51,245 nt of DNA. Source: Candidatus Woesearchaeota archaeon. GTDB lineage: Archaea; Nanobdellota; Nanobdellia; Woesearchaeales; ARS49. Below, one piece after another: positions 5,845 to 49,469 of the stretch (position 1 is its first letter; every line of letters starts with the position of its first letter). The notes under the pieces were generated by a model that ran no database searches, was not told the origin of the DNA, and saw only the letters and a list, made by a program, of their open reading frames with translations. The DNA lies in contig WJJT01000054.1 in the NCBI GenBank assembly GCA_014729555.1, forward strand, positions 1 through 51,245. The letters are read 5' to 3'. The position numbers were made by a program, and so were the translations under genes.

Positions 5845-6252
5845 TTATTCTTTCCTAAACAAATCTTCTAAAACAATCCTATCATTATCAGAAATCTTCA
5901 GGCTTTTCAATTCATCAAAAGAAAAAAGACTCAAATCCCTGCCTTCTTCCTACTGTTTTCTCAAGAAATCAATAGAATACCCTAATGGCGCGGTGTAAAC
6001 AAATTTCTCAAACAAGCCAGGCTTTTCCTGCGCCTCATAGCTCTTAAAAAATTTAAAGTCTTTAAGCTCAATGCCAAGCTCTTCCCCAGCCTCTCTTACC
6101 ACTGCCTGCTCTGGAGTTTCGCCTTCTTCAATGCCGCCACCAAAAAAAGCCCAGTAATCAGGCAAAAGCTTTGCAGATTCAGACCTATGCTGAAGAAGAA
6201 CCTTATCTTCTGCGTCTCTCAAAACAAACAATGCAACTCTTCTTGCGTACAT
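5845..6252 (-). pseudogene. NUDIX hydrolase interrupted by an in-frame TAG at 5950-5952
   Basis: Nudix box GGGIEEGETPEQAVVREAGEELG. After LRKQ-TAG the frame continues for 34 codons (EEGRDLSLFSFDELKSLKISDNDRIVLEDLFRKE) to a TAA at 5845, resembling a Nudix C-terminus. Confidence 0.75.
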
Positions 6253-6284: not shown

Positions 6285-7514
6285 TTATCTCTTAATCCTA
6301 AAAAATATCCATATTACCGGCAGGAAAACAAATGCAGAAGCAAATATTGTCAGTCTTGCCCCAAATACATCAACCAAGGGGCCTGCAATCAAAGTAGAAA
6401 CAGCACCGCCTATTGCAAGGACCATTGACTGCATTGATGTTATTGTTGCACGCATTCTTGATGGGATTTTTTTCTGGATAAATGGGTTAAGTATCGGGTA
6501 TGTGAAGCTGCCAATCTCAAATAATGCTATCAGAAGCAGTAATCCCACAATCGGTCCTGCTACAAAGATTATGCTCAGCGTCATAATGCAATTAAGAATA
6601 AAACTGAACCTCAAAATCTTGATATCCTTGTATCTGCGCAATGCAGGCTTTGCCAGAAATGGAAGCAGGATCCCAAAAACAGCTGCAAGGCTTCTCATCC
6701 ACCCAAAATCCTTTAATTCAAAACCAAGCTCTATAAGCATCGGCTGATATGCAAAGCCAAGTATTCCTCCAATAAGACCAAACAATAACATAGAAATAAA
6801 CACAAGGAGCAATACAGTGTGATGCCTGATGTAAGAAGCACCTTTTCTAGAGTAATGCAAGACACCCAGTAGTTGCAGATGTATTTTCTTCTTCTTTCTC
6901 TTAAAATCCTCTTTTGTGAACAGCAACAAAACCAAAAGCGCAAAAGATATGCCTGCAGCCTGGAAAAACCAAACAAAATCAGCGCCAAAAAACACGTGAT
7001 TAAACAGAACATAAGTCTCATCTGCATCAAACACCATCAATATCCCTGTCAGCAAGACCCCTGCAAGCAGGATGCCTGCAGATGCCAGGCTGCGATATTT
7101 AACATAAAAATCAGGTATGTACTCTTTCTTGTTCTGCTTCTTGAGATAATCAATGACCCAAGCCTCTTCTGCACCAGACCTGAATGTGATGGCAATGCCC
7201 ATCATCGTGAACAGTAGTATAAGAACCAAAAAGCTCTGTATAAACGGCGCGAGAACTGCAAACAATATCATGAGAAGAAAGCCGATGGCAACACTGGTTT
7301 TCCTGCCAAAAATATCAGCAACAGCCCCTGTAGGGACTTCGAAAAGAAAAGTGGCTACAATCAAAATACTCATGCCAACACCAACTTCTGTAAATGAAAA
7401 CCCCTTCTGCACAAAATAAACAGTCCATATCAAGGAGCCAATCCCAAAAATGTGCTCAATAAATAAGAATAAGTAAAACGGCCAAAGCAGTCTTAATTCC
7501 TCTTTTTTGAACAT
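6285..7514 (-). CDS. MFS transporter
   Basis: EVPTGAVADIFGRK motif-A variant and about 12 TM segments. Confidence 0.9.
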   Translation of the reverse strand: MFKKEELRLLWPFYLFLFIEHIFGIGSLIWTVYFVQKGFSFTEVGVGMSILIVATFLFEVPTGAVADIFGRKTSVAIGFLLMILFAVLAPFIQSFLVLILLFTMMGIAITFRSGAEEAWVIDYLKKQNKKEYIPDFYVKYRSLASAGILLAGVLLTGILMVFDADETYVLFNHVFFGADFVWFFQAAGISFALLVLLLFTKEDFKRKKKKIHLQLLGVLHYSRKGASYIRHHTVLLLVFISMLLFGLIGGILGFAYQPMLIELGFELKDFGWMRSLAAVFGILLPFLAKPALRRYKDIKILRFSFILNCIMTLSIIFVAGPIVGLLLLIALFEIGSFTYPILNPFIQKKIPSRMRATITSMQSMVLAIGGAVSTLIAGPLVDVFGARLTIFASAFVFLPVIWIFFRIKR

Positions 7515-7552: not shown

Positions 7553-8461
7553 TCAATACTCCTCAGCTTCCCAGAACCGTCCGTTAGTAATCCTTTCCCA
7601 CTCTTTGATCACTGTTTCCTGAATCTCTCCAATCTGCTCCTCAGTTAAATGCTTAAAGCGTCCTTGAATCTTTAAAGCTTCTTTGACAGGAATCATCTCA
7701 GGCTTGTGATTGATTGTTATTTTCTTTTTCTCAATCTCATAGAGAGGCCACATGCCAGACTCAACCATAAGTTTACCAGATTTTATAGTCTCATGCGGCT
7801 TGACAAGCCAGCCAGGCTCGCAAGGAGACAACAAATCAATAAAAACAGAACCCTCAACCTTGGCAGCCTTTCTTAACTTCCTGATAAAATCAAAAGGAAA
7901 AGAGACACAAGCAGTAGCACAATAATCAGCACCACCCATAGCCATCATCTTAGCCATGTTCTTCCTGGGCAAAGGATTGCCAATAGGAGGCGGTGTAGTA
8001 GTAGTCCTGGCATACTTCTCAGTAGCAGAAGTGCACTGATGCCCTGTATTGGCAAACTGGCAGTTATTATAACAAATGTAAATAATCTTTTCCCTCCTGT
8101 GAATCATTCCACTTAAAGACTGTAAACCAATATCATAAGTAGCGCCATCACCAGCATAAACAACAACATGAGTATCCTTGTCTTTCTTAAGAGCCTTCAA
8201 GCCCATCAAGATACCAGCAGCAACAGAGCCGCCATTCTCAATAGCACCATGAACCCAGGGAATCCTGTAAGGAGTAAAAGGCCAGGTAGCAGTAAGAGTC
8301 ATGCAGCCAGAAGAATTAACCATAATAACATTCCTGCCCAAAGCAATAAGAGTCAATCTAATACCCAAGACAGGATTACAGCCAGCACAAGCAAAAGTGC
8401 CTCCAGTAAGCAAGTGCGGTTTCTTCATCTCCTCTTTTATGTTAAAATCTACATCTGCCAT
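7553..8461 (-). CDS. porB: 2-oxoacid:ferredoxin oxidoreductase beta subunit (TPP-binding)
   Basis: ACAGC, GDG...NN TPP motif, SPCxxGW. Confidence 0.9.
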   Translation of the reverse strand: MADVDFNIKEEMKKPHLLTGGTFACAGCNPVLGIRLTLIALGRNVIMVNSSGCMTLTATWPFTPYRIPWVHGAIENGGSVAAGILMGLKALKKDKDTHVVVYAGDGATYDIGLQSLSGMIHRREKIIYICYNNCQFANTGHQCTSATEKYARTTTTPPPIGNPLPRKNMAKMMAMGGADYCATACVSFPFDFIRKLRKAAKVEGSVFIDLLSPCEPGWLVKPHETIKSGKLMVESGMWPLYEIEKKKITINHKPEMIPVKEALKIQGRFKHLTEEQIGEIQETVIKEWERITNGRFWEAEEY

Positions 8462-9588
8462 TTTCTATCATCTGCCTTAGCTTTTAAAACATCATTCAGG
8501 ATATCAACATAATCATCTTCTGAAACAAAATTTCCTCCTAAACCCTGAATATAATTACAAACAACATTTTTACAACCAGACAAGGCCATCTTGACCTCTG
8601 GATAAAGAATACCACCCATGCCAGGACAGATATTCTGGTCAATAACAGCAATATTATCAATCTTTTCAAGAGCCTTTCTTAACTGCTTTTCAGGAAAAGG
8701 CCTGAACAACCTAATCCTTAACAAACCAACCTTTTTTCCTTTTTTCCGCATTTTATCAACAGCAGAACGGGCAATAGTTGAGTTAGCACCAATCATCACA
8801 ATCACAGCCTTTGCATCCTTTGTCTTATACTCATCCAAAAACTCATACTTCCTGCCAGTCACTTTAGCCCAGGCTTTCTGAACATTGTCAACAACATCAA
8901 AAGAATCAAGCATAGCCTTATGCAATTGCTGCCTATACCTCATGTAATCAAGGCCCATTGCAGGAATACCCAGAGTCATAGGCTTCTTGACATCCAGCCT
9001 GACCTCTAATTCAGGATGAGACAGGAACTTGTCAACAAGCTTTTGCTCAGGAACATCAACCTCTGTCCTTGTGTAAGAATGCACAAAACCATCCATGTTA
9101 ACAATAACAGGAAGCAAAATCTTAGGATTCTCAGAAATCCTGTAAGCCATAATCACACTATCCAAGACCTCCTGATTAGTCTCGCAAATCAGCATAATCC
9201 AGCCAGCATCACGCATGGCCAAGGTATCATTGTGATCAGGCCACAAACCGATAGGAGCAGACAAGCACCTTGAGACTGTTGTAAGCACCATAGGAGTCCT
9301 GCAGCCAGAAATAATAGGAAGCATCTCATGCATCAACAACAAGCCCTGAGACGAAGTTGCTGAAAAAGTCCTTGCACCAGTCATAGAAGCACCCAAGCAA
9401 GCGCTTGCAGCACTATGCTCTGACTCCAACACAACAAACTCTCCAGGAAATTTTCCATCAGCCTTCCAGGCAGCAATAGTCTCAATAATCTCAGTAGTGG
9501 GAGTGATAGGAAAAACAGGAACACACTGCACCTTAGCCCTACGAGCACCCCATGCAGCACAAGCATTACCATCAAGTATGTCAATCAT
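8449..9588 (-). CDS. porA: 2-oxoacid:ferredoxin oxidoreductase alpha subunit
   Basis: FPITP, ESEH, ATSSQGL and RLFRPFP motifs. Confidence 0.92.
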   Translation of the reverse strand: MIDILDGNACAAWGARRAKVQCVPVFPITPTTEIIETIAAWKADGKFPGEFVVLESEHSAASACLGASMTGARTFSATSSQGLLLMHEMLPIISGCRTPMVLTTVSRCLSAPIGLWPDHNDTLAMRDAGWIMLICETNQEVLDSVIMAYRISENPKILLPVIVNMDGFVHSYTRTEVDVPEQKLVDKFLSHPELEVRLDVKKPMTLGIPAMGLDYMRYRQQLHKAMLDSFDVVDNVQKAWAKVTGRKYEFLDEYKTKDAKAVIVMIGANSTIARSAVDKMRKKGKKVGLLRIRLFRPFPEKQLRKALEKIDNIAVIDQNICPGMGGILYPEVKMALSGCKNVVCNYIQGLGGNFVSEDDYVDILNDVLKAKADDRKWQM

Positions 9589-9896
9589 TTTTTATGCAGC
9601 TTACCCCTCTCTTGCTCAACTGAAATACACTTAACAGGACAAACCTCAACACAAAGCAGGCAGCCCTTGCAGACCTTTGAATTACACACAGGAAAACCCT
9701 CTTTGTTAAAATCATAAGCAGCATCTGGGCAATGCAACCAGCACATACCGCACTTAATGCATTTGTCATAATCAATAACAGGCTTGAAAGTGCGCCAATT
9801 AGCACGCTCAATCAACTGCTGCTTTTCAACAGCATGAGGAATGCCTTTCTTGCCCAAATTCTTAATGTCCTTTTCCTTGATAATCTTGCTCAACAT
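9585..9896 (-). CDS. porD: 2-oxoacid:ferredoxin oxidoreductase delta subunit (2x[4Fe-4S])
   Basis: WRTFKPVID followed by two CxxCxxCxxxCP motifs. Confidence 0.9.
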   Translation of the reverse strand: MLSKIIKEKDIKNLGKKGIPHAVEKQQLIERANWRTFKPVIDYDKCIKCGMCWLHCPDAAYDFNKEGFPVCNSKVCKGCLLCVEVCPVKCISVEQERGKLHKK

Positions 9897-10444
9897 ACCA
9901 CCTTGTCATAACAGATCTCAGCAGCCTGCAAATTCTTCTTTACAGCCTCTGGATGCTTTTTCCCTAATTCAATCTCAACAGCCTTTGCCAAATGATCCAT
10001 GTCAATCTCCTTGAAAATCTTGACAAAAGCACCCAACAAAGCAATATTAGGAATATTCCTGCCAATAACCTGCACAGCAACACCAGTAGCATCAACCTTG
10101 CAGTACTCAACATCCAGCTTCAGGTCCCTTGCAGTGTTAATCAGCTCTTTAGTCGTCTTTTTCCTGCCCTTCAGGTGACAGGAAAGCTCTAAAGTATCAT
10201 CCAGAACAATAATAAAATCAGGATTCCAGACATAACCCCTTGTGCCGATAGGCTTTTTATCAAGCCTCACAAAACTAGTGACAGGAGCCCCCCTTCTCTC
10301 TGCGCCATACAAGGCAAAATCCTGAGTAAAATAGCCTGCAAGATACGCAGCCCTGGCTAAAATCTGTGCAGCCTTCTTTACACCCTGGCCGCCTCTTCCA
10401 TGCAGTCTTATTGAAATCATCTTTTCCTGTATTTTTTTAGCCAT
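9890..10444 (-). CDS. porG: 2-oxoacid:ferredoxin oxidoreductase gamma subunit
   Basis: HGRGGQG and YGAERRGAP motifs. Confidence 0.92.
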   Translation of the reverse strand: MAKKIQEKMISIRLHGRGGQGVKKAAQILARAAYLAGYFTQDFALYGAERRGAPVTSFVRLDKKPIGTRGYVWNPDFIIVLDDTLELSCHLKGRKKTTKELINTARDLKLDVEYCKVDATGVAVQVIGRNIPNIALLGAFVKIFKEIDMDHLAKAVEIELGKKHPEAVKKNLQAAEICYDKVVC

Positions 10445-11580
10445 GGCTCCATCCTCTTCAGGGCCTTTTGAATCAATTTATAATCAGTAGCAAAAGAAAA
10501 CCTGGCATGGCCTTCCCCTACAGTACCAAAATCAATGCCAGGAACAGCAGCAACCTTTGCCTCCTTAATCATCTTATTGCAAAACCTCTTGCTATTATCA
10601 TCAAACTGTCTTATATTACCAAAAGCATAAAACGCACCCTTAGGCATTGGACAGCTGATGCCCATCTCATTCAAGGCAGGAACAATCAAATTCCTTCTCC
10701 TGTCATACTCCTTAACCATCTGTTTTGCATGCCTGTCACCCATCTTCAGGGCTTTCAGGCCAATCAACTGAGAAATGCTCGGAGCACAAATAGTGGACAG
10801 TATATGAGTCTTCTTTATAGCCTCTGCCAAATCCTCATTACAAACAACATAACCAAGCCTGTGCCCGCACATTGCATAACTCTTTGAAAAAGTCTGAAAA
10901 GTAACTGCATAATCCTCCATGCCATTAAAAGATGCAATAGAATAATGCTTTGCACCATCATAAAGAATATGCTCATACGCCTCATCAGAAAAAATATACA
11001 AGTCATGCTCAACAGCAATATCTGCAAGCTCTTCCAATATCTTTTTACTGAGAACATTTCCAGTAGGGTTTGCAGGAGAATTAATCAGCAAAACCTTTGT
11101 TTTTTTCCTGTTAACCGCCTTTTTAACAGCATCAGGATTAACAGCATAATCATCCTCTTCCTTAAGCTCAACAAAACGCGGATTTGCATTAAACAACTCA
11201 AAAGTCGGGAGAAAGCCCATAAAGCCAGGATCAGGAAGAATAATCTGCTCAGAAACATCCAGGCAGCAGGCAGTTGCAAGCATCAAGGCCTCTTGCGAAC
11301 CGCAGGTCACAACAACATTATCAGGAGAAACCTTAATCTTATTCCCTTTTTTCAGCTTTTTACAAATCTCCTCCCTTAACTCCTTGAACCCGCCAGGAGG
11401 GGCATAATGATTCACCTTGTGCGCAAGTCTTTTTGTGTGAGCAACAAGACTTGGATGCAGTTCAAAATCCGGCTCACCAGGACCTAAAGAGATTATCTCG
11501 GGATGCTCAACAGCAATCTCCAACAGCTTGTCAATCTCCAGGTCAGGAAGCTCCTGCTCCCTCTCAGACAACTCAACCAT
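10417..11580 (-). CDS. PLP-dependent class I aminotransferase
   Basis: GEPDF, NSPANPTG, SDEAY and TFSKSYAMCGHRLG (PLP lysine). Confidence 0.93.
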   Translation of the reverse strand: MVELSEREQELPDLEIDKLLEIAVEHPEIISLGPGEPDFELHPSLVAHTKRLAHKVNHYAPPGGFKELREEICKKLKKGNKIKVSPDNVVVTCGSQEALMLATACCLDVSEQIILPDPGFMGFLPTFELFNANPRFVELKEEDDYAVNPDAVKKAVNRKKTKVLLINSPANPTGNVLSKKILEELADIAVEHDLYIFSDEAYEHILYDGAKHYSIASFNGMEDYAVTFQTFSKSYAMCGHRLGYVVCNEDLAEAIKKTHILSTICAPSISQLIGLKALKMGDRHAKQMVKEYDRRRNLIVPALNEMGISCPMPKGAFYAFGNIRQFDDNSKRFCNKMIKEAKVAAVPGIDFGTVGEGHARFSFATDYKLIQKALKRMEPWLKKYRKR

Positions 11581-12727
11581 AGTACACCTTTTTTTTAATG
11601 TTTAATCCTCTATTTTTCAATGCTTTATATAAAATTTGCGGAGGAACATCAAACTCATGCTTTAAAGCCCCTTTTTTCTTTATATCACCGCGAACAATCA
11701 TCTCTGCAATCACGCCGGCAGGAAAGCCAGTGCACCGTGTCATAGCAGTCAGGCCGCCTTTTTCCTTGTCAACAAGAGTGTAGACAACCTTTTTCTTTGT
11801 GCCCTCAACAATAACCTTTAGCAACACAAGATCCTTGTCCTTGTAAGACAGCTTTTCCTTGAACAAATCCTCAAGCAGTTCTCTGGGCGGAAACTTGCAG
11901 CCCTCCACCTCCCTGGGCTTGCTTGAAGTCAGGCCAAGATACATCATGCATCTTACCTTCTCTGCATGGCCAGGGTAACGAATAGTCTTGTAATTCAATT
12001 CCTTTATTTTGCCCTTATAACTCTGGGGCATTGTGGATGTTCCGCCAGAGGTATTAAATGCCTCCATCTTTCCAAAACCAGGAAAATTCAACTCCTCAAC
12101 ATCCTGCATAGGCTCAACAGTCTTGAGCTTGTAATTATCAATAACCAAAACAGGCTCAATATACTCATTAATCAGGCCATGAACAGAAAAAACAATCATA
12201 TACTTCAACGGGCCCTTTGGGTGCTGAGGCAGGCCTCCAACCCTGAGCTTGACAGACTTTACTTTATTGCCCTTAAAATCCTTTTGAACAGCCAGTGCAG
12301 CCAGGTTGCTCACAAGACCAGGAGCAAGACCGCAGTCAGGAATAATAGCAACATTATTCTTCTTAGCCTGCTTGCTTAATGAAAACTCTTTCTTCACAAT
12401 ATCAACATTACCCCCTAAATCAATAAAATTACACCCTGCTTTTACAGCAGCCCTTGCCAAATCATAATTATACTGATAAGGAACAGCACTCACAGCACAA
12501 TCAAACTTCTTCATAAGCTTCACAGTCTCGTTAAAATTCTTAGCATTAAGCTTCACAGGACAAATCTTGTCACTCTTAAGCATCTTCTTGATCTTCTTGG
12601 GCTTGTCAAGATGCCGTGAAGCAACACAAACCTCATCAATATCCTTCTGCCTGACAAACTCATAAGCAATAGCCTGAGCCTGCTTGCCAGCACCAACAAT
12701 CAACATCTTATAACTCATCTTATACAA
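11573..12727 (-). CDS. Saccharopine dehydrogenase / L-lysine 6-dehydrogenase family
   Basis: Rossmann GAG, DLGG, DCGLAPG, VGGLP, FSVHGLINEY, FNTSGG, YKTIRYPGH. Confidence 0.88.
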   Translation of the reverse strand: MYKMSYKMLIVGAGKQAQAIAYEFVRQKDIDEVCVASRHLDKPKKIKKMLKSDKICPVKLNAKNFNETVKLMKKFDCAVSAVPYQYNYDLARAAVKAGCNFIDLGGNVDIVKKEFSLSKQAKKNNVAIIPDCGLAPGLVSNLAALAVQKDFKGNKVKSVKLRVGGLPQHPKGPLKYMIVFSVHGLINEYIEPVLVIDNYKLKTVEPMQDVEELNFPGFGKMEAFNTSGGTSTMPQSYKGKIKELNYKTIRYPGHAEKVRCMMYLGLTSSKPREVEGCKFPPRELLEDLFKEKLSYKDKDLVLLKVIVEGTKKKVVYTLVDKEKGGLTAMTRCTGFPAGVIAEMIVRGDIKKKGALKHEFDVPPQILYKALKNRGLNIKKKVYYG

Positions 12728-12733
12728 CCTCTT

Positions 12734-13756
12734 TTAATGAATACACACTTTAGGAGGATTTTTCAACAAAGCCTCAAGGAGTTTTATGCAATCAAGTATA
12801 TCCTTAAGGCTTGCTATACCCACAGTAGTGTGCATGTTTCTTATAGCAACACCAACAACAGCAGTAGGAATCCCGCCTTTTTCAAAAGAAATGCTCAAGG
12901 CATCAGTAGTACCAAAATCACTAACATCCAACTGGATCCTGATTTTCTCTTTTTTTGCAACCTTCTTGAGCCAGTCACTAATGCAAAGGTTAGAAATCAT
13001 CTCAGCATCCTTGACAAGAATCACAGGACCTCCTCCCAAGCGTTTTGTGACAACATGGCCGTGCTCAATAGCATCATCTGCATTAGTGACATCAATAACA
13101 ATAGCCCAGTCAGGATCAATACTGGCAATAGAGGTCTTTGAGCCGTACAATCCAAGCTCTTCCTGAGTCGTGAAAACATAATAAATATCTGCACTGGATT
13201 TTTTAAGCCTTTTTGCAAGCTCAATCAAAGCATAGCAGCCAATCCTGTCATCAAGCGCCTTGCCAGAAATAACATCCCTGCAGCCGAGGCAGTCAACCGG
13301 CTGAACAAGCTCAAGAAAAGAACCAGCACCAATGCCCAGCTTTTTTAATTCTTTCTTGTCAAGACCTGTATCAACAAACAAATCCTCTATTGAGAATTTT
13401 TCTTCCGGCTCTTCACCATCACTAATTTCTGCAAAAGTGACAATGCCGTGAATCTTGGGGCCCTGCTTTGTCTTAATGCTGACCTTCTCCCCAACCAAGG
13501 AAACATACTCAACACCGCCAATAGGAGAGACATAAATATTTCCATTAGCAGAAATACTTTTAATCATCAAACCAACCTCATCCATGTGAGCAGCAAGCAT
13601 TACCTTTGCGCCCTTTCCCTTTTTATGAGCGATGATGTTCCCGAACTTATCAACAATTACATCCTTAACATGCTTTTTGATCTCTTTTAGTATCAAGCTT
13701 CTCACTTTTTCTTCATTGCCGCTGACACCCTGGACCTCTAACAACTTCTTTAACAT
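12734..13756 (-). CDS. M42 family (TET-like) aminopeptidase
   Basis: AAHMDEVG, GKALDDR, QEELG, DVT and GTTDA motifs. Confidence 0.92.
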   Translation of the reverse strand: MLKKLLEVQGVSGNEEKVRSLILKEIKKHVKDVIVDKFGNIIAHKKGKGAKVMLAAHMDEVGLMIKSISANGNIYVSPIGGVEYVSLVGEKVSIKTKQGPKIHGIVTFAEISDGEEPEEKFSIEDLFVDTGLDKKELKKLGIGAGSFLELVQPVDCLGCRDVISGKALDDRIGCYALIELAKRLKKSSADIYYVFTTQEELGLYGSKTSIASIDPDWAIVIDVTNADDAIEHGHVVTKRLGGGPVILVKDAEMISNLCISDWLKKVAKKEKIRIQLDVSDFGTTDALSISFEKGGIPTAVVGVAIRNMHTTVGIASLKDILDCIKLLEALLKNPPKVCIH

Positions 13757-15223
13757 CTACTTTTCACCCCATTCAATATCCTGAGCCTTCTGTAGCCTGC
13801 CAGAATAATCAACATAAACAGTCTTGGTCTCAGAAAACTCATCAATACCCTCCATGCCTGCCTCTCTAGTGCCATTGCCAGTCTGCTTGACACCGCCAAA
13901 AGGCAGGTGAACCTCTGCACCTGTTGTGCTGGAATTAATGTAAGTGATTCCTGCCTCTATCTTTTGAATGGCCTTGAAAGCATTATCAATACTCCTGGTG
14001 AAGATGCTTGAACTCAGGCCGTAATCAACACTGTTAATCACATCAATAGCCTCTCTGAAGTTCTTCACAGGAATAATCGTGACAACAGGACCAAAAATCT
14101 CCTCCTGCGCAACAGTCATGCCTTTTTTTGCATCAGAAAAAACAGTAGGCTCAAAAAACAAGCCCTTTAGTTTTTTCCCGCCGCAAAGCAGCCCAGCACC
14201 TTCTTTTTTTCCAATACCAACATACTTCTGCACCTTTTCAACAGCACTCTCATTAACCAAAGGGCCAACATCCACCTTGGAGTCAAGACCAGAACCAAGC
14301 CTTAACTTCTTGATTCTTGCAATAAATTTTTTCTCAAAATCTTTCTGCACTTTCTTGTGAACAATAACCCTTGAAGCAGCAGTGCACCTCTGGCCGGTTG
14401 TCCCAAAACCACCCCAGACAGCACCATCAACAGCCAAATCCAAATCAGCATCATCCATAACAATGATTCCATTCTTTCCGCCAAGCTCCAGGCCAACCTT
14501 TTTCAGGCCGGCATTCTCTGCAATGAATTTTCCGGTATTTCTTGAGCCTGTAAAAGATATTCCTCTAATATTTTCATGCCTGATTATCGGGGTCCCAACA
14601 TCCTTTCCACTGCCTGTAACGAGATTAACAACACCAGCAGGAACACCTGCTTTCACAAGAAGCTCAACAAACCTTATGCCGCACAAAGGAGTATCAGAAC
14701 TGGGCTTGAAAACAACAGTATTTCCACAGATTAAAGCAGGAGCAATCTTCCACGCAGGCAATGCAAAAGGAAAATTCCACGGCGTTATCACACCAAAAAC
14801 ACCAACAGGAACACGAAGGGTCATGCAGAACTTGTCAGGCAGTTCAGAAGGAGTAGTATGACCAAATAATCTCCTCCCTTCTCCAGCCATATACTCAAAA
14901 ACATCAATAGCCTCCTGCACATCACCCTCTGACTCAGCCAAGACCTTGCCCATCTCCATAGTGATGCATTTAGCCAGCTCTTTCTTGTTCTGCTTTAACA
15001 AATCTCTTACCGTGAAAAGAATCTCTGCACGCTCAGGAGCAGGAGTCTGCGACCAGCCAGGGTATGCCTTCCAGGCAGCTCTCACAGCATTATCAACATC
15101 ACTCTTGTTTCCCTGCGGAAATTTTCCAAGAGACCTGCCATTAGCAGGATTAAAACTCTCAAAAGTCTTTCCAGAGCTGGAATTAACCCATTTGCCGCCA
15201 ATAAAAATTTTATTAGTCCTCAT
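13757..15223 (-). CDS. NAD(P)-dependent aldehyde dehydrogenase (semialdehyde dehydrogenase-like)
   Basis: PWNFP, FTGS, LELGGKN, GQRCTA, EEIFGP, PFGG. Confidence 0.94.
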   Translation of the reverse strand: MRTNKIFIGGKWVNSSSGKTFESFNPANGRSLGKFPQGNKSDVDNAVRAAWKAYPGWSQTPAPERAEILFTVRDLLKQNKKELAKCITMEMGKVLAESEGDVQEAIDVFEYMAGEGRRLFGHTTPSELPDKFCMTLRVPVGVFGVITPWNFPFALPAWKIAPALICGNTVVFKPSSDTPLCGIRFVELLVKAGVPAGVVNLVTGSGKDVGTPIIRHENIRGISFTGSRNTGKFIAENAGLKKVGLELGGKNGIIVMDDADLDLAVDGAVWGGFGTTGQRCTAASRVIVHKKVQKDFEKKFIARIKKLRLGSGLDSKVDVGPLVNESAVEKVQKYVGIGKKEGAGLLCGGKKLKGLFFEPTVFSDAKKGMTVAQEEIFGPVVTIIPVKNFREAIDVINSVDYGLSSSIFTRSIDNAFKAIQKIEAGITYINSSTTGAEVHLPFGGVKQTGNGTREAGMEGIDEFSETKTVYVDYSGRLQKAQDIEWGEK

Positions 15224-15528
15224 TTGAGATTCAGAGCCTTCTTAATCTTGTCAACATCATAGCCAACAATAATCTTTCCGCCAATATCCAAGACAGGAAC
15301 ACCCATCTGATCTGACTTCTTGATCATCTCCTCCCTGGCCTGTTCATCAACAGAGACATCATGATCCTTGAAAGAAATCTTTTTCTCCTTCAGAAACTCC
15401 TTTGTCTTCCTGCACCAAGGGCAGGTATGTGTGGAATAAACAATCACTTTAGGCTTTTTCTTAGAAGACTTTTTTTTAGCTTTTTTTGCCTTTTTCTTGG
15501 CTTTCTTTTTAGCTTTTTTCTTAGCCAT
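15220..15528 (-). CDS. Glutaredoxin/NrdH-like redoxin with a Lys-rich N-terminal tail
   Basis: CPWC active site and QMGVPV; N-terminus MAKKKAKKKAKKKAKK. Confidence 0.9.
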   Translation of the reverse strand: MAKKKAKKKAKKKAKKAKKKSSKKKPKVIVYSTHTCPWCRKTKEFLKEKKISFKDHDVSVDEQAREEMIKKSDQMGVPVLDIGGKIIVGYDVDKIKKALNLK

Positions 15529-15962: not shown

Positions 15963-17264
15963 ATGATAGACAAAAAAGAACACGCAGACCTGGAAGGCAT
16001 GCGGTTTCACAAGAACGCTTGCATGCTGACAGGCACAAAACTATATGCACCAAGCCACGCAGCAATGAGCGGGCTATGCGCAAACTGCATAATGTGCGGA
16101 CTGTGCGAAGTAGGGGCAAAAGCAAAATCAGGAAGAACACTTTTTCCACAGCCATTCGGCACAACACAATTCGGTGCAGAAAAAAGAATACCAAACATGG
16201 AAGACCTCCAGATAATGCCAGAATTATACGGAGAGGGATTATTCTTCACAAAAACAAGTTCTGAGGGAGAATTAGGAGGATTCAAGTGCACTGTCCCTCT
16301 AGTAATCGCAGGAATGGGCTCAACAAAAGTAGCATCAGACAAGAATGATGAACTCACAATCGGAGCTGCAAAAGCAGGAATAGCAAGAGTATTAGGAGAA
16401 AATTACCTCATAACATTTGGAGAGGAAAAACTAAAGCACACAATAGACATCTACAAGAAAAACCAGAAAAAAGGCTATGGAGCAATCGTGATACAGGTAA
16501 ATGCAAACGAGCACAAGCTGGGACTTGCAAAAATGGCAGCAGACCTCGGAGCAGATGCAATAGAAATGAAACTCGGACAGGGAGCAAAACAAGGACTAGG
16601 CGGAGAGATACAGTTTGAAGGAGAAGAAAAAGCAGAAAAATTCAAGAAAGCAGGATACCTAGTCATAGACAAAGGCAATGGCAAATATGAAAGACACGCA
16701 TTCCCAGGAACACTTACTTCAGAATCATTAAGAGAGACACTAAAAGAATATGCAAGCCATGGCAAACCGCTCTGGGTAAAGACAGGAATGGGCATAGGAA
16801 TAATAAAACTAATAGAAGAGCTGGACAAAATCAAGAAAGAAGAAGACCTTCCAATTGAAATACTGACAGTAGACGGATTCGGCGGAGGGACAGGAATGAG
16901 CCCATGGCTGGTCATGAATGAAATGAACATGCCGTCAGGAGCTTTGTTTTCTGTATTGAAAAAGAGACCAAGCTTTGACATAATATTAGCAGGCGGGTAT
17001 AGCACTGGCTTTGATGTGGCAAAAGCAATGATGCTCGGAGCAGACGGCGTTGCAATGGGAAGGCCGTTCTTGATAGCAGCAAGGCAGGAAAACGGAATAG
17101 AAAACTTTTGTGCTGCAATAAGCGAAGAACTAAAAATGACAGCAGTAACACAGAAAGTTGACACAATCTCAAAAATAGTAGGCAAAAGAAAATCACTGTT
17201 TGCCTTATCAAAAGAAGCAAAAAACATGTTTGGCATAACAACAGAGCCAAAGGATGTTTTATAA
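15963..17264 (+). CDS. FMN-binding glutamate synthase family protein (stand-alone FMN domain)
   Basis: IEMKLGQGAKQGLGG, VDGFGGGTG and DVAKAMMLGAD motifs; N-terminal CxxCxxCxxC. Confidence 0.85.
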   Translation: MIDKKEHADLEGMRFHKNACMLTGTKLYAPSHAAMSGLCANCIMCGLCEVGAKAKSGRTLFPQPFGTTQFGAEKRIPNMEDLQIMPELYGEGLFFTKTSSEGELGGFKCTVPLVIAGMGSTKVASDKNDELTIGAAKAGIARVLGENYLITFGEEKLKHTIDIYKKNQKKGYGAIVIQVNANEHKLGLAKMAADLGADAIEMKLGQGAKQGLGGEIQFEGEEKAEKFKKAGYLVIDKGNGKYERHAFPGTLTSESLRETLKEYASHGKPLWVKTGMGIGIIKLIEELDKIKKEEDLPIEILTVDGFGGGTGMSPWLVMNEMNMPSGALFSVLKKRPSFDIILAGGYSTGFDVAKAMMLGADGVAMGRPFLIAARQENGIENFCAAISEELKMTAVTQKVDTISKIVGKRKSLFALSKEAKNMFGITTEPKDVL

Positions 17265-17522: not shown

Positions 17523-18263
17523 ATGGGGGCAAGATATTTAATATTATTCATATGCTTAGCAGCAGTACTGGCAGGATGCACTGCCAAAGAACAGCAAGAG
17601 AGCGAATATGAAGGGATTAAAGAAGCAATTTTCGCCTGCAACTCTGCTTTTAATACTTGGGATGGCAAGACACACACAATATGCTATGATTCTGCAGGGG
17701 AAAAATTATTTGATGAGCCTTATGATGTTCTAAATGAATTGGGCTTTTCTAAAAAAGAAACAGAAAAACTTGAAAAAGAATTTAAGCAAGGATGCTTTAA
17801 TGAAGTATTGTTCAAAGACCTGCCGCCAAGCATCATAACAGAAGCGATTCTTAATACAGGACTGTTCAAAGACAAAAAAATCTGCGGAAATATAGACAAA
17901 AACACATACTTTTGGAAACATATCAACCACACATACACATATTCTATAAAGCATACTGGAGCAGGAGGCAATTTCAGAGGATATATTTGGTCACTGGAAG
18001 TGGAGCCATACACAACTGAAGGAATTGCTGTTGAAAAGTACCCTTTCCTGGCTTGCGACTCATTCTCTGCACACAAAATGCATGCCTGGACCCTTGATAT
18101 TAAAAAAGAAGGCAACATGCTAAAAATAACTGCAGACAACATAAGCCCAAAAGAGCCAGAAGACCTTGATTCAGAAGGAATGAACAGGATTGCAAAAAAC
18201 TTCACAAACTGCAGCATCAAATATGATTATTACAGGATTTCTGAAGAAAATACATACAATTAA
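17523..18263 (+). CDS. Hypothetical lipoprotein
   Basis: Lipobox LAGC after a hydrophobic signal. Confidence 0.7.
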   Translation: MGARYLILFICLAAVLAGCTAKEQQESEYEGIKEAIFACNSAFNTWDGKTHTICYDSAGEKLFDEPYDVLNELGFSKKETEKLEKEFKQGCFNEVLFKDLPPSIITEAILNTGLFKDKKICGNIDKNTYFWKHINHTYTYSIKHTGAGGNFRGYIWSLEVEPYTTEGIAVEKYPFLACDSFSAHKMHAWTLDIKKEGNMLKITADNISPKEPEDLDSEGMNRIAKNFTNCSIKYDYYRISEENTYN

Positions 18264-18638: not shown

Positions 18639-19379
18639 ATGGGTGACAAGAAGCCAGTACTAGGCATTGTATCATTCACATGCGACCAAGGATGCCAGTT
18701 CACAATACTATTCATTGAAAAACTAATGGACATTCTAAAGAAATTTGACGTGCAATACTTTCATTTGCTGAAAGAAAAGAACAGAAAAGCAAAATTCGAC
18801 CTCTGCTTTGTAGAAGGAGCGATAACAACAAAAAAAGAAGCAGAAAAACTCAAAGAAATCAGAAAAAAAAGCAAAGTACTTGTGGCGCTGGGAGCATGCG
18901 CATGCCACGGCGGAGTTCCTGCAATGCGAAACTTCATAGAAAATAAAGAACTTGAGAAATACGTCTACAACCAAAAGCTTCCAAAAGACGCACTGTCAGC
19001 AGCAGGAATAGGAGAATACGTGAAAGTAGACTATTACATGTATGGCTGCCCAATAATAAAAGAAGAATTCATGAATTTTTTAAATCAATTCCTGAAAGGA
19101 AAAATAATGAAAGAATTTGAGGGGCCTGTGTGCGCAGAGTGCCCAAGACAAGGCAAGCAAGACTGCTTTTTAAGACAGAAAAAAATCTGCCTGGGGCCGC
19201 TGACACACGGCGGATGCTCAGCAGTCTGCACAAAAGCAAACTTTGAGTGCATGGGATGCAGAGGACCAAGACCAAAAGCAGACTACAAGGCAGAAATAGA
19301 GCTTTTCAAGTCCTGGGGATTATCAGAAAAAGAGGTAATGCAAAGACTAAACATGTTCAAGAACATAGAAAACACATAA
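18639..19379 (+). CDS. [NiFe] hydrogenase small (delta) subunit, group 3b-like
   Basis: TCDQGC, VEGAI, LGACACHGG, YGCP, CxxC, CLGPLT.GGC...C, CMGCRG. Confidence 0.9.
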   Translation: MGDKKPVLGIVSFTCDQGCQFTILFIEKLMDILKKFDVQYFHLLKEKNRKAKFDLCFVEGAITTKKEAEKLKEIRKKSKVLVALGACACHGGVPAMRNFIENKELEKYVYNQKLPKDALSAAGIGEYVKVDYYMYGCPIIKEEFMNFLNQFLKGKIMKEFEGPVCAECPRQGKQDCFLRQKKICLGPLTHGGCSAVCTKANFECMGCRGPRPKADYKAEIELFKSWGLSEKEVMQRLNMFKNIENT

Positions 19380-19428
19380 AATCATAAGATTTTAAGTGTA
19401 CAAAAAATTCAGGAGGAATTTTTCAGGT

Positions 19429-20706
19429 ATGCCAAAAAAAATAAACCTAAACCAAATAACAAAAATAGAAGGACACGCTAAACTCCACATAAAGATAGAC
19501 AAAGGAGAGATAAAAAAAGTAAACCTGAAAATCTATGAAGGCTCAAGATACTTTGAAGGCATACTAAAAGACAAGAAATTTAACGACGTCAACCACATTG
19601 CCTCAAGAATATGCGGGATATGCAGCCCTGTGCACGGCCTTACATCTGTCAAAGCAACTGAAAAAGCCCTGGGAGTGCAGGTATCTGAACAAACAGAACT
19701 ATTAAGAGAGATACTGAACATCGGGGGAACAATACAGAGCCATGTCCTGCATTTATATTTCTTAACACTGCCAGACTACACAGGCTTTCCAAACGCAGTG
19801 CAGATGGCGCAAAAACACCCAGAAAAAGTAAAATCAGCGCTAAAGATAAAACAAATAGGAAATGACCTTGTCAGAGTGATTGGAGGCAGGGACATCCACC
19901 CCTTTACCTTAACACCAGGCGGGTTTGTCAGAATACCAAAACCAGAACAATTCAAGGCATTATTAAAAAGCGCAAAAGCCTGCCTGCCAGAAACAGAAAA
20001 AGCAGCACATTTATTCTGCGGACTGGACTACCCAGACTTTAAGCGCGAGACAAAACATTATGCACTAAAAGCCAAAAAAGGGTGCTTTTTCTGCCCAGAA
20101 GACAAGATAACCTGCACAGGAGGAAAACAGTGCATAGCAGTCACAGACTATGAAGATTATTTCAAGGAGTTTTTCAAGCAGGGCTCAACAGCAGAATTTG
20201 CAAAAGCAAATGAATCAAGCTACATGGTAGGAGCATGGTCAAGAATACTTAACAATTATGACCAATTAAGCAAAGAAGGGAAAAAACTAACAAGCTGCAT
20301 ACTGCCAAGAAAATTCTCACCATTCATGAATAATCCTGCCCAAGCAGTAGAGATGTGGGAAGGGCTCAAAAGAGTTGTTGATGTTCTTGAAAGCACTGAC
20401 TTCAAGCCAGAAAAACCAGTTGAAATCAAGACAAAAGCAGGAACAGGCATAGGAGCAAATGAGGCACCAAGAGGAATTGTATTCCATAAATACAAGTATG
20501 ACAACAAAGGATACACAAAACTGGTCAACATAACAACACCAACAACACAAAACCTGCAAAACCTTGAAGACGACATCAAGCACTTCCTTCCAACACTATT
20601 AGACAAGCCCAAGGAAGAAATACAATTAGAAATAGAGAAACTGATAAGAGCATATGATCCCTGCATTAGCTGTGCAGCACACTTTCTGGAAATTGTGTGG
20701 GAATAG
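19429..20706 (+). CDS. [NiFe] hydrogenase large (alpha) subunit, group 3b-like
   Basis: TKIEGH, L1 motif RICGIC, EAPRG, L2 motif DPCISCAAH, then a short cleavable tail FLEIVWE. Confidence 0.95.
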   Translation: MPKKINLNQITKIEGHAKLHIKIDKGEIKKVNLKIYEGSRYFEGILKDKKFNDVNHIASRICGICSPVHGLTSVKATEKALGVQVSEQTELLREILNIGGTIQSHVLHLYFLTLPDYTGFPNAVQMAQKHPEKVKSALKIKQIGNDLVRVIGGRDIHPFTLTPGGFVRIPKPEQFKALLKSAKACLPETEKAAHLFCGLDYPDFKRETKHYALKAKKGCFFCPEDKITCTGGKQCIAVTDYEDYFKEFFKQGSTAEFAKANESSYMVGAWSRILNNYDQLSKEGKKLTSCILPRKFSPFMNNPAQAVEMWEGLKRVVDVLESTDFKPEKPVEIKTKAGTGIGANEAPRGIVFHKYKYDNKGYTKLVNITTPTTQNLQNLEDDIKHFLPTLLDKPKEEIQLEIEKLIRAYDPCISCAAHFLEIVWE

Positions 20707-32048: not shown

Positions 32049-32200
32049 GGCGGCGTAGCTTAGCCTGGTATAGTACTGCGCTCATGAATGTTTTTCTTGA
32101 GCTATGAGGTTTTTAACCAATGATTACAAGAAAGCAGTGCAACGCAGGGGTCCCGAGAGGTATATACAAATATCCGGGAATTCAAATCTCGGCGCCGCCA
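32049..32200 (+). tRNA. tRNA-Met(CAT), elongator-type, with two introns (about 55 nt in the anticodon loop; 23 nt at 53/54)
   Basis: GGCGGCG/CGCCGCC-A; anticodon stem CTGCG/CGCAG enclosing 62 nt; T-stem BHB CCCG-AGA...CGGG-AAT gives intron 32158-32180. The first intron's boundaries are uncertain because its BHB is relaxed. Confidence 0.8.
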
Positions 32201-32943
32201 TTTTTAATATCATACAGGTTTATTTTTCCATCTAAGATTAAATTCTTTTGTTCGTAATTTAAATTAGCTGGGCAGAATCCAAATTTCTTCCAAATCCTAT
32301 ATTTCAGAAGGTGTTTTTCATTTCTTAAACCAATTATTTTCAAATATCTTTCAACATTTTTGACTCCGTTAAGCGATAAAACCCATGTTTTGTTAGGGCG
32401 AGCTTTGCTTTCTTTTTCTTCGTTAAAAGATGCATTCAATTGAAATTTTTCCAATAGTTTCGCAACTTGTTGAATAAGTGGTTTAGATTTAGATGTCAAA
32501 CGAAGTTCTGGATAAGAATGATATTTTCCTTTAAAGGGTTTTCTAAATTTTAAGTAACCATCTGTATCGAACAATCCTCTGATACACGCTATTGTGAATT
32601 TTTTATCAGATAAAACCCATGCAGGAATTTGCATATCTGTCTTTGGACCTAAAGGCAATCCCATTCTTTTCTTGAATAAAATCAAAGACTTGCGATGATA
32701 TTTCATTTCAACAGTATTTTTCCTAATGTGTATATGAGAGGGAAAAATATTATACAGTTTTTTGATTAATTCTTTTACAAATTCGCTATATGCCACATCA
32801 TTTATCGCATCTGCAGAGTATGAAAAAGTATTATTGTTATATTTAGGATAAATATTCATGAAGCCATCTCCAATATGAATTCCTGTTTCTTCTGCCAGTT
32901 CTTCACTATATTCTGTCGGTAATTTTAATTTGTATTTTACCAT
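32182..32943 (-). CDS. Free-standing two-motif LAGLIDADG homing endonuclease
   Basis: LAEETGIHIGDG and IRGLFDTDG motifs; AT-rich; its last codons overlap the tRNA-Met 3' end. Confidence 0.88.
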   Translation of the reverse strand: MVKYKLKLPTEYSEELAEETGIHIGDGFMNIYPKYNNNTFSYSADAINDVAYSEFVKELIKKLYNIFPSHIHIRKNTVEMKYHRKSLILFKKRMGLPLGPKTDMQIPAWVLSDKKFTIACIRGLFDTDGYLKFRKPFKGKYHSYPELRLTSKSKPLIQQVAKLLEKFQLNASFNEEKESKARPNKTWVLSLNGVKNVERYLKIIGLRNEKHLLKYRIWKKFGFCPANLNYEQKNLILDGKINLYDIKNGGAEI

Positions 32944-49112: not shown

Positions 49113-49469
49113 ATGCCTAGACTGCCAAGAGTATCGGACTTTGAAAACAAAAAAGACCACTTAGGCAGGAAGATATGCAGGAATTGTGAACAGACTGTGG
49201 CAAAAAGAAGACGATTCTATTGCAGCACAAAATGCATGGACGAATTTAATCAGAATCACGATTGGCACTGGGTTAGAAAAGCAATACTAAGACGAGACAA
49301 TTACCGCTGCAGCATCTGCAGAACAAGAAAGCGCAAAGCAGAGCTTGATGTCGACCATATTATTCCAGTAAGATGCGGAATCAATCCATTTGGCAAAAAT
49401 AATCTGCGGCTTCTCTGCAAAGAATGCCATAAAGCAAAAACAAAACTGGACCGCGAAGCAAATCTTTAG
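49113..49469 (+). CDS. HNH endonuclease
   Basis: RD.YRCSIC, VDHIIP, NLRLLCKECHKAKT, plus an N-terminal zinc finger. Confidence 0.9.
   Translation: MPRLPRVSDFENKKDHLGRKICRNCEQTVAKRRRFYCSTKCMDEFNQNHDWHWVRKAILRRDNYRCSICRTRKRKAELDVDHIIPVRCGINPFGKNNLRLLCKECHKAKTKLDREANL

Follow-up and report, generated by a model that had tools for sequence, protein, structure and literature searches.

In a 51,245-nucleotide contig of a Candidatus Woesearchaeota archaeon (WJJT01000054.1; this whole stretch is called the window here), nine co-directional open reading frames (ORFs) on the minus strand fill exactly positions 15528 to 7553. A preliminary description of this DNA had read the run as one peptide-to-lysine-to-glutaryl-CoA fermentation operon. 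We lean towards a composite: a conserved core, consisting of a class I aminotransferase (AT) gene and the porCDAB genes of a four-subunit 2-oxoacid:ferredoxin oxidoreductase (OFOR), into which a cassette of three genes was inserted, because six relatives keep AT-porCDAB without these three genes. On balance, we favour the view that the cassette serves the oxidation of basic amino acids and was placed in the operon that encodes the one, generalist AT/OFOR line of the cell. Conversion of lysine to 2-aminoadipate is the most likely chemistry of the cassette, an approximately even bet, and onward conversion to glutaryl-CoA and glutarate is possible; the substrate roles named here and below are predictions.

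The assembly comprises 1.04 Mb in 58 contigs, of which the window is C44. Since the genome is 89% complete, every genome-wide absence from it reported below is provisional. The assumption of a reduced DPANN genome made in the preliminary description is reasonable in view of the assembly size, of archaeal markers in the window (prefoldin, diphthamide synthase, SRP54/FtsY) and of the sources of the closest aldehyde dehydrogenase (ALDH) and M42 peptidase homologues, which are labelled Woesearchaeota, Nanoarchaeota or Aenigmarchaeota.

The run begins with the first core-operon gene in the window, which encodes a glutaredoxin-like protein of the YruB family (15220-15528; 97.6 bits, cut-off 88.55; CPWC motif). 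It is followed by the three cassette genes, namely an ALDH (13757-15223; Pfam Aldedh 597.7 bits), a TET-type M42 aminopeptidase (12734-13756; Pfam Peptidase_M42 279.7 bits) and a PH1688-like NAD(P) enzyme with a saccharopine dehydrogenase (SDH) fold (11573-12727; Sacchrp_dh_NADP and Sacchrp_dh_C), a candidate L-lysine 6-dehydrogenase. The core then continues with the class I (fold-type I) AT (10417-11580; Aminotran_1_2 219.8 bits), the OFOR gamma subunit PorC, which is conserved in relatives (9890-10444; TIGR02175 160, cut-off 81.1), the delta subunit PorD with two [4Fe-4S] clusters (9585-9896; TIGR02179 74.3, cut-off 60.05; two CxxCxxCxxxC motifs), the alpha subunit PorA (8449-9588; POR_N and PFOR_II; PorA_Arch 403.5, below 550; FPITP) and the thiamine pyrophosphate (TPP)-binding beta subunit PorB (7553-8461; TPP_enzyme_C; PRK11865 301.7, below 405; GDG...NN). 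Neighbouring genes overlap by 4-28 nt or are separated by 0-6 nt. Thus, the ORF list reproduces the nine abutting or overlapping genes of the preliminary description at the span it gave, and Pfam and NCBIfam agree with all nine of its family assignments. A motif search found the catalytic and cofactor motifs intact in the ALDH, PorD, PorB, the glutaredoxin, the SDH-like protein and PorA. The glutaredoxin-like ORF opens with a 27-residue Lys/Ala-repeat tail (15448-15528, minus strand) ahead of the glutaredoxin domain; tblastn matches in relatives span this domain alone, and the tail may reflect a wrongly called start or an extension peculiar to the lineage.

We compared the por loci of nine relatives by tblastn with the window proteins. 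Seven of these loci reach upstream of porC, while those of G005 and G036 are too short to judge the upstream context. PorA identity is 86-93% in all five genomes of the same genus, and two other genera of the family reach 83% and 65%. An AT gene (68-83% identical) lies directly upstream of porCDAB in six of the seven loci; four of these belong to unpublished genomes (G001-G004), and G014 and G009 independently show AT-porCDAB without the trio. The remaining locus, G049, has porCDAB and no AT within 4 kb upstream. Immediately upstream of the AT, a match to the glutaredoxin-like gene (75-85% identity) was detected in G001-G003. No ALDH, M42 or SDH-like gene was found in any of the nine por loci. 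The core is AT-porCDAB, preceded by the glutaredoxin-like gene in the window and in three congeners. Its surroundings are shared as well: the divergent genes for a glutamate synthase (GltS)-like protein and a NiFe hydrogenase follow in the six relatives' loci with context as they do in the window. The flanks are syntenic too: a Na/Ca exchanger and u570 border one end and rubrerythrin the other. Consequently, the nine genes do not form one co-conserved set, an outcome that the preliminary description itself had named as refuting its reading: six relatives have the core without the trio, and in none of the five congeners was a trio gene found.

The trio sits exactly between the stop codon of the glutaredoxin-like gene and the start codon of the AT gene. 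At the first junction, the glutaredoxin stop and the ALDH start overlap by 4 nt, and at the second the SDH-like stop and the AT start overlap by 8 nt; one congener joins the glutaredoxin-like gene directly to the AT gene by the same kind of overlap. GC content is the same in the cassette and its flanks (0.41-0.43). Genome-wide searches for the trio covered 60 relatives, including the five congeners, which are 86-97% complete. In none of these five did we recover an ortholog of the ALDH (E<=1e-30), of the M42 peptidase (E<=1e-20) or of the SDH-like protein, whose best congener match has 27% identity. We also sampled 400 other genomes of the phylum: 23 of them hold an ALDH match at E<=1e-150 (58-68% identity), and none of the 29 sampled members of the window's own family is among them. 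The SDH-like gene is rarer (9/400 at E<=1e-50, best 46% identity), and in the 11 DPANN loci examined it adjoins none of ALDH, M42, AT and OFOR. The best homologues of the SDH-like protein (91%), the ALDH (88%) and the M42 peptidase (76%) all come from sources with a longest contig of 46215 bases, and further pairs share a longest contig of 54996 (SDH-like and ALDH) or 12674 bases (SDH-like and M42), which suggests that a second contig holds the same trio and that the arrangement recurs. We therefore incline to see the trio as an accessory cassette gained by insertion into the core operon.

The ALDH and the M42 peptidase have a wider context. We surveyed 21 ALDH loci (20 of the 23 matched genomes plus G049), for which about 7 kb were fetched on each side. 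A class III aminotransferase occurs within the stretch in 17 of them, usually directly after the ALDH gene, and an M42 gene (45-60% identical) in 13, one of these being inferred from two contig ends of G049 that overlap over 955 nt at 95% identity. Ornithine carbamoyltransferase (OTC) and a conserved 453-residue soluble P-loop protein lacking a family match, here termed X453, are each found at 10 of the 21 loci, carbamate kinase (CK) at eight, a subunit of an ADP-forming acyl-CoA synthetase (ACD) at four and a class I AT at three. AT-porCDAB lies near the module in a single case (G348), where it is convergent on it. In G049, OTC (373, cut-off 306) and the carbamate kinase arcC (368, cut-off 358) pass their NCBIfam thresholds, and the class III AT belongs to the acetylornithine/ornithine AT family. 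ALDH and M42 recur together in DPANN genomes, usually with an omega-aminotransferase as the third member. We found no description of an ALDH - class III AT - M42 module in the literature searched.

In the window, the ALDH and M42 genes lie next to each other and are orthologous to the module pair. No class III AT was found in this genome, in which PF00202 has no match anywhere, and the SDH-fold gene is present after M42. For this reason we are inclined, if only slightly, to regard the cassette as a variant of the module in which an NAD(P) dehydrogenase stands in the place of the transaminase.

X453 itself (L185:3799-5160 in G049, and nine other DPANN loci) adjoins the CK and OTC genes and lies directly between them in G049. 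It carries a Walker-A-like motif and matches nothing in Pfam at E<=1e-6 or in NCBIfam at E<=1e-5. Because no arginine deiminase (ADI) was seen in the clusters with X453, this protein may account for an as yet undescribed step in arginine or citrulline metabolism.

The SDH-fold protein probably starts at the ATG at 12718. It has a Rossmann motif (GAGKQA, residue 12) and matches PF03435 and PF16653, the two domains of the SDH fold. Its nearest solved relative by sequence is 3ABI/PH1688 (phmmer, E 1.5e-40), which has been identified as an L-lysine 6-dehydrogenase (LysDH) according to an excerpt of PMC10413350. Saccharopine and carboxyspermidine dehydrogenases score far weaker (1e-7 to 1e-12); carboxyspermidine dehydrogenase (CASDH) matches have E values of 1e-7 to 3e-9, and all non-LysDH relatives lie at 1.7e-12 or weaker. 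The AlphaFold (AF2) model (pLDDT 90.8) gave 3ABI as the first Foldseek hit (TM 0.79-0.88, 28% identity), compared with 18% identity for CASDH. Hence, the protein is closer to LysDH than to saccharopine dehydrogenase or reductase, CASDH or homospermidine synthase, by a real margin and at a large distance. The assignment as lysine 6-dehydrogenase in the preliminary description holds as far as the nearest relative is concerned, while the activity, at 28% identity, is a prediction from sequence. Many members of the family carry the automatic JGI name lysine 6-dehydrogenase.

A FastTree phylogeny of 177 family members, midpoint-rooted and built without a characterised LysDH, placed the protein in a clade of 22 sequences (54-91% identity, support 0.999) that stem from metagenome assemblies. 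This clade groups weakly (0.68, 0.31) with other DPANN homologues, and its patristic distances to members linked to 1-piperideine-6-carboxylate (P6C) dehydrogenases (2.43) and to glutamate-semialdehyde (GSA) dehydrogenases (2.70) give no resolution. A metagenome scan with the single SDH-like protein gave no match; a metagenome alignment search returned 39-47% identical relatives among the matches listed. Neighbouring ORFs were compared over 160 listed genome and metagenome loci of the family. A recognisable SDH gene is present in 155 listed loci of such distant members, where the informative neighbours are an amino-acid permease (11 loci, just upstream of the SDH gene), an ALDH (seven) and a sodium:solute symporter (five). 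Most neighbours across the 160 listed loci are lineage-specific (PilZ, 3D domain, sigma factor) and uninformative on function. By tblastn at 80 genome loci, an ALDH was found within 10 kb at five, a class I AT at one, and OFOR and M42 at none. Six neighbouring ALDHs were scored: two are P6C dehydrogenases above the cut-off (783 and 784, cut-off 730), two are GSA dehydrogenases above theirs (771 and 772, cut-off 648) and two are generic. The family members beside the P6C dehydrogenases are 45% identical to the window protein. Through these neighbourhoods the family is linked to the oxidation of basic amino acids at the omega position, and there are hints of lysine as well as of ornithine. In the present genome the balance tips towards lysine, and the enzyme is a candidate L-lysine 6-dehydrogenase, because neither CK, X453, ADI nor a close OTC turned up there and because an M42 peptidase would free lysine, not ornithine.

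Two bacterial family members (L003 and L010, 44-45% identical) are convergent with GSA dehydrogenases that pass the cut-off, and L010 additionally has an adjacent sodium:solute symporter. This hints that some proteins named lysine 6-dehydrogenase act on ornithine or in proline-related catabolism. In a relative (G011, L186:6130-8741), an aminobutyraldehyde-dehydrogenase-type ALDH (625, cut-off 615) is directly followed by a distant SDH-fold gene, 21% identical to that of the window, which pairs an ALDH with an SDH-fold enzyme through other paralogues.

The ALDH matches PF00171 over residues 12-469 and has the motifs ELGGK (246) and GQRCTA (277), as expected for the superfamily. Its best NCBIfam models are alpha-ketoglutaric semialdehyde dehydrogenase (533.9, cut-off 770) and then 2,5-dioxovalerate dehydrogenase; no equivalog cut-off is reached, and the best matches in the PDB are generic ALDHs. 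The preliminary description had it form 2-aminoadipate and proposed a comparison with ALDH7 and 2-aminoadipate semialdehyde (AASA) dehydrogenases. The corresponding model NF050084 (P6C/AASA dehydrogenase) scores 382.2 against a cut-off of 730 and ranks below 14 other ALDH models. By its sequence, the protein is not ALDH7-type and belongs to a patchily distributed group of DPANN ALDHs. The M42 peptidase, the sole one of the genome, covers profile positions 1-292 of PF05343 and is thus full-length. Its nearest structures are PhTET2 (1Y0R, 3e-66), a lysyl aminopeptidase (4X8I, 3e-53) and a PhTET3-like enzyme (2WZN, 6.5e-52), and it stays below the archaeal lysyl aminopeptidase model NF040822 (216.7, cut-off 700).

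The AT and the OFOR appear to be enzymes of a general kind. Nearest to the AT are Pyrococcus horikoshii aromatic AT (1DJU/1GD9, E 1e-94) and then aspartate ATs. No entry named as a 2-aminoadipate AT (the LysN/KAT II type) occurs among the 22 PDB matches at E<=1e-40, so that its earlier designation as the enzyme for the step from 2-aminoadipate to 2-oxoadipate is not borne out. No other strong class I AT was found in the genome, and the enzyme may have a broad specificity that includes 2-aminoadipate. The OFOR is likewise the only POR_N match, and hence the sole 2-oxoacid:ferredoxin oxidoreductase found in the genome. Its gene order porC-D-A-B, TPP motif and Fe-S cysteines place it in the four-subunit family of pyruvate and 2-oxoisovalerate:ferredoxin oxidoreductases (POR and VOR); the same order is given for most four-subunit pyruvate:ferredoxin oxidoreductases in PMC13768988. 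The equivalog cut-offs for POR are missed (PorA_Arch 403.5, cut-off 550; PorB 301.7, cut-off 405; PorC 159.4, cut-off 270; PorD 75.9, cut-off 120). The POR models are still the best-scoring OFOR models for every subunit, two POR/VOR subfamily models pass, and models of 2-oxoglutarate:ferredoxin oxidoreductase (KOR) score far lower (88-140 bits). PorA matches the four-subunit POR 9BT4 best (E 1e-80), followed at 7e-61 by oxalate oxidoreductase (OOR).

Two PorA segments, which we take to line the substrate pocket, align with the YPITP-type motif and an arginine-containing loop of the POR and OOR structures. The motif FPITPTTEI is identical in five relatives that lack the trio (G001-G004 and G014). 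In the segment VSRCLSAPIGLWPDHND, three of these (G002, G003 and G014) show no change, and G001 and G004 each differ at a single residue. Nothing points to a preference for 2-oxoadipate over pyruvate as had been suggested. Since no other OFOR was found in the genome and this one resembles POR most closely and shares its alpha-subunit motifs with trio-less congeners, it does not appear to be specialised for a lysine route. Enolase and phosphoenolpyruvate (PEP) synthase/pyruvate phosphate dikinase (PPDK) are present in the genome, which is why pyruvate is probably a central metabolite, and its oxidation is most simply assigned to this OFOR; no pyruvate kinase was found in the genome. The preliminary description was right that an OFOR able to take 2-oxoadipate is conceivable. 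Broad-range archaeal OFORs are a precedent: the excerpted data of PMC13768988 give turnover of 2-oxoadipate at 37-52% of the pyruvate rate for the two-subunit OFORs of Aeropyrum pernix. By analogy with these enzymes, a side activity on 2-oxoadipate is plausible even in an OFOR that is not specialised for it.

We propose the following working of the locus. The M42 peptidase would free N-terminal amino acids from peptides. The dehydrogenase would deaminate the omega-amino group of a basic amino acid oxidatively, most likely that of lysine, and the ALDH would oxidise the semialdehyde (AASA/P6C) to 2-aminoadipate. The resident AT and OFOR may then carry 2-aminoadipate to 2-oxoadipate and on to glutaryl-CoA, from which an ACD may form glutarate and ATP. 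This branch would be a side activity of generalist enzymes rather than the task of a dedicated 2-oxoadipate OFOR, and the core line would lead from an amino acid or pyruvate to a 2-oxoacid, to an acyl-CoA with reduced ferredoxin, and through the ACD to an acid and ATP. An acyl-CoA synthetase elsewhere in the genome, to be looked for according to the preliminary description, was indeed found: there is one ADP-forming ACD, with an alpha subunit of 454 and a beta subunit of 211 residues (TIGR02717 504, cut-off 567). No acyl-CoA dehydrogenase was found in the genome, which speaks against the proposed fermentation through glutaryl-CoA; because of this, and since one ACD is present, glutaryl-CoA could at most give glutarate and ATP. 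Neither glutamate dehydrogenase (GDH) nor dihydrodipicolinate synthase (DHDPS) was found in the genome. The ACD alpha and beta genes are about 4 kb apart (L256, G000:C5:18000-28000) and adjoin another transporter of the major facilitator superfamily (MFS), a SufS-type cysteine desulfurase and a thioredoxin-like lipoprotein.

Electrons from the OFOR had been proposed to go to the nearby hydrogenase, whose small and large subunit genes lie on the plus strand (18639-20706). The nearest-relative searches argue for a group 3b or sulfhydrogenase-like enzyme: the large subunit is nearest to sulfhydrogenase I alpha (9NEZ, E 2.4e-75) and the small subunit to ShyD/HydD delta. Characterised group 3b hydrogenases are linked to NAD(P)H rather than to ferredoxin. 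As judged from these relationships, the hydrogenase is group 3b-like and direct ferredoxin oxidation is not supported. The divergent gene for a GltS-domain/FMN protein (15963-17264, plus strand; weak Pfam matches Glu_synthase and FMN_dh) had been taken for a possible recycler of the amino acceptor. It is 80-94% identical in relatives and adjoins the hydrogenase genes in each of the six loci with context; that of G014 has it directly upstream, 46 nt from hydS, on the same strand. A redox role in association with the hydrogenase is more likely for this protein than recycling of the amino acceptor, and the protein may be the electron-input subunit of the hydrogenase. In the window, a 246-residue ORF lacking a family match (17523-18263, plus strand) lies between the two.

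Other explanations of the locus have to be weighed against a basic-amino-acid cassette inserted into a generalist operon. The carbon might come from ornithine or arginine: an ornithine 5-dehydrogenase would replace the omega-AT, the ALDH would make glutamate from GSA, and glutamate would be kept or pass as glutamate and 2-oxoglutarate through the AT and OFOR. We consider this doubtful, yet it is a serious candidate. The orthologous ALDHs lie near OTC in 10 and near CK in eight of the 21 DPANN loci, G049 combines OTC, arcC and a class III AT of acetylornithine/ornithine type, and two family members of the dehydrogenase adjoin bona fide GSA dehydrogenases. Moreover, the one ureohydrolase of the window's genome scores equally as agmatinase and arginase (130 and 128 bits, both below the cut-off), which leaves ornithine a certain probability. 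However, the genome lacks matches to CK, X453, ADI and a close OTC, M42 peptidases do not free ornithine from peptides, and the one relative of the dehydrogenase that has been characterised acts on lysine. Even the usual substrate of the module may be either of the two, since the related omega-AT of Thermococcus kodakarensis takes both ornithine and lysine, as tabulated in PMC9986279. Improbable, in our estimate, is a dedicated, co-evolved nine-gene pathway from peptide through lysine, 2-aminoadipate and 2-oxoadipate to glutaryl-CoA, with an OFOR that prefers 2-oxoadipate and passes electrons to the hydrogenase. The core without the trio in six relatives contradicts a dedicated catabolic module, as do a single OFOR in a genome with enolase and PEP synthase/PPDK, alpha-subunit motifs shared with trio-less congeners and best matches to POR. 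An ALDH that is not ALDH7-type, an aromatic-AT-like aminotransferase, a group-3b-like hydrogenase and a GltS-like gene that belongs with it point the same way. These observations outweigh a chemistry that is coherent at the family level, a dehydrogenase nearest to a lysine 6-dehydrogenase, packing tight enough for translational coupling, the presence of the ACD and a hydrogenase within 4 kb.

We give still less credence to polyamine or other amine metabolism (carboxyspermidine, homospermidine-type, aminoaldehyde oxidation) as the task of the SDH-fold enzyme and the ALDH, with an accidental position beside AT-porCDAB. The matches to CASDH are far weaker than those to LysDH in both E value and identity, no carboxyspermidine decarboxylase is nearby in the window, and M42 and an amino-acid permease recur beside the module and the family, which points to amino acids. 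The idea draws on the fold family, which includes carboxyspermidine dehydrogenase and homospermidine synthase, and on the G011 locus with its aminobutyraldehyde-dehydrogenase-type ALDH directly ahead of a distant SDH-like gene. Least probable in our view is that the trio was ancestral at this site and lost repeatedly, or that the contig is a chimeric assembly. The junctions are seamless, the GC content does not differ between cassette and flanks, and genes are easily lost from reduced genomes. Nonetheless, all five congeners and two further genera are without the trio and none of the 29 family members has the ALDH, so that repeated loss would be needed, and a chimera is unlikely with ORFs overlapping across both junctions and a second contig that seems to hold the same trio.

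Several points weigh against an inserted lysine cassette as well. When the structures are aligned, the dehydrogenase shares no more than 28% identity with PH1688, and the two family members next to GSA dehydrogenases adjoin enzymes that pass their cut-off. The ALDH fails the P6C-dehydrogenase threshold (382, cut-off 730), and its orthologues elsewhere usually adjoin ornithine-pathway genes; GSA from ornithine is therefore a live alternative. The M42 peptidase is closer to the leucine-preferring PhTET2 than to lysyl aminopeptidases and shows no specific sign of lysine preference. Without GDH, the fate of the alpha-amino group is unexplained. The evidence for a sister contig consists of coincident longest-contig figures, and gain rather than loss of the cassette would follow from parsimony over seven relatives' loci, four of them unpublished. 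The incompleteness of the assembly adds to these points.

The inserted cassette can be compared with known systems. Bacteria pair LysDH with AmaB, and the bacterial LysDH/P6C dehydrogenase route and PH1688 share with the window an SDH-fold NAD(P) enzyme nearest to 3ABI that is paired with an ALDH. While two 45% identical homologues adjoin a P6C dehydrogenase that passes the cut-off, the window ALDH is of a generic DPANN type, M42 lies between the two genes and the identity to PH1688 is 28%. Thermococcales have POR, VOR, indolepyruvate (IOR) and 2-oxoglutarate:ferredoxin oxidoreductases (KGOR), several ATs and several ACDs each. Their peptide fermentation follows the same logic of AT, four-subunit OFOR and ACD, and the window AT is nearest to a Pyrococcus aromatic AT; in contrast, the genome studied here would rely on a single OFOR, a single ACD and a single strong class I AT for all substrates, and GDH was not found in it. 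The T. kodakarensis (TK) gene table, as excerpted from PMC9986279, lists several such enzymes.

The DPANN module resembles the window in its orthologous ALDH (58-68%) and M42 (45-60%) and in AT, porCDAB or ACD as occasional neighbours. It differs in that the window lacks the class III AT, has the SDH-fold gene after M42, and OTC, CK and X453 were not found. The step that the class III AT of the module probably carries out is performed in T. kodakarensis by TK2101, an ornithine omega-AT that accepts L-ornithine and L-lysine with 2-oxoglutarate or 2-oxoadipate as acceptors, according to the same excerpts of PMC9986279. TK2101 is a pyridoxal phosphate-dependent transaminase in need of a 2-oxoacid acceptor, whereas the window enzyme is a pyridine-nucleotide dehydrogenase and would release ammonia. 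Minimal catabolism and a near-obligate symbiotic life are usually ascribed to DPANN archaea. The consulted portion of an early survey of 19 genomes reports no porA/B in Woesearchaeota (PMC5994134), and that of a later one por and acdAB in a few metagenome-assembled genomes (PMC11606122). The literature searched describes no lysine catabolism in DPANN archaea; the supplements of both surveys may list such genes.

Further features of the window lie outside the nine-gene run. Past porB, the run is extended by two genes that the preliminary description had left out of its operon: a co-directional MFS transporter gene 38 nt after porB (6285-7514, minus strand) and the gene for a short Nudix-domain protein that accompanies it (5950-6252, minus strand), both assigned with Pfam/NCBIfam. 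In relatives, this pair is missing between porB and the Na/Ca exchanger and u570 genes; it is a second accessory insertion in the same operon, and the MFS protein may be an importer of the cassette substrate or an exporter of its product. A free-standing LAGLIDADG-domain ORF near tRNA-Ser (32182-32943, minus strand) and an HNH endonuclease ORF near tRNA-Gly and tRNA-Glu (49113-49469, plus strand) are possible mobile-element remnants.

A more far-reaching scenario, which we put forward as unlikely in its entirety, is that a DPANN archaeon with a genome of about 1 Mb gained a lysine-to-glutarate fermentation with substrate-level ATP formation by adding three to four genes, whereby an ammonia-releasing dehydrogenase displaced the omega-AT and the MFS transporter serves uptake or glutarate export. 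If true, this non-orthologous displacement would free a genome lacking GDH from needing a 2-oxoacid as amino acceptor, and insertion within the operon, where stop and start codons overlap, would wire the product directly into a single generalist line of AT, POR-type OFOR and ACD. The locus exposes a recurrent DPANN module of ALDH, omega-AT and M42, with or without OTC and carbamate kinase, and it offers a clean, testable case of transaminase-to-dehydrogenase displacement. It is also a warning that the substrate specificity of an OFOR should not be read from its neighbours alone. For the organism, a small accessory cassette dropped into the operon of one generalist oxidoreductase line would be a cheap way to widen the diet.

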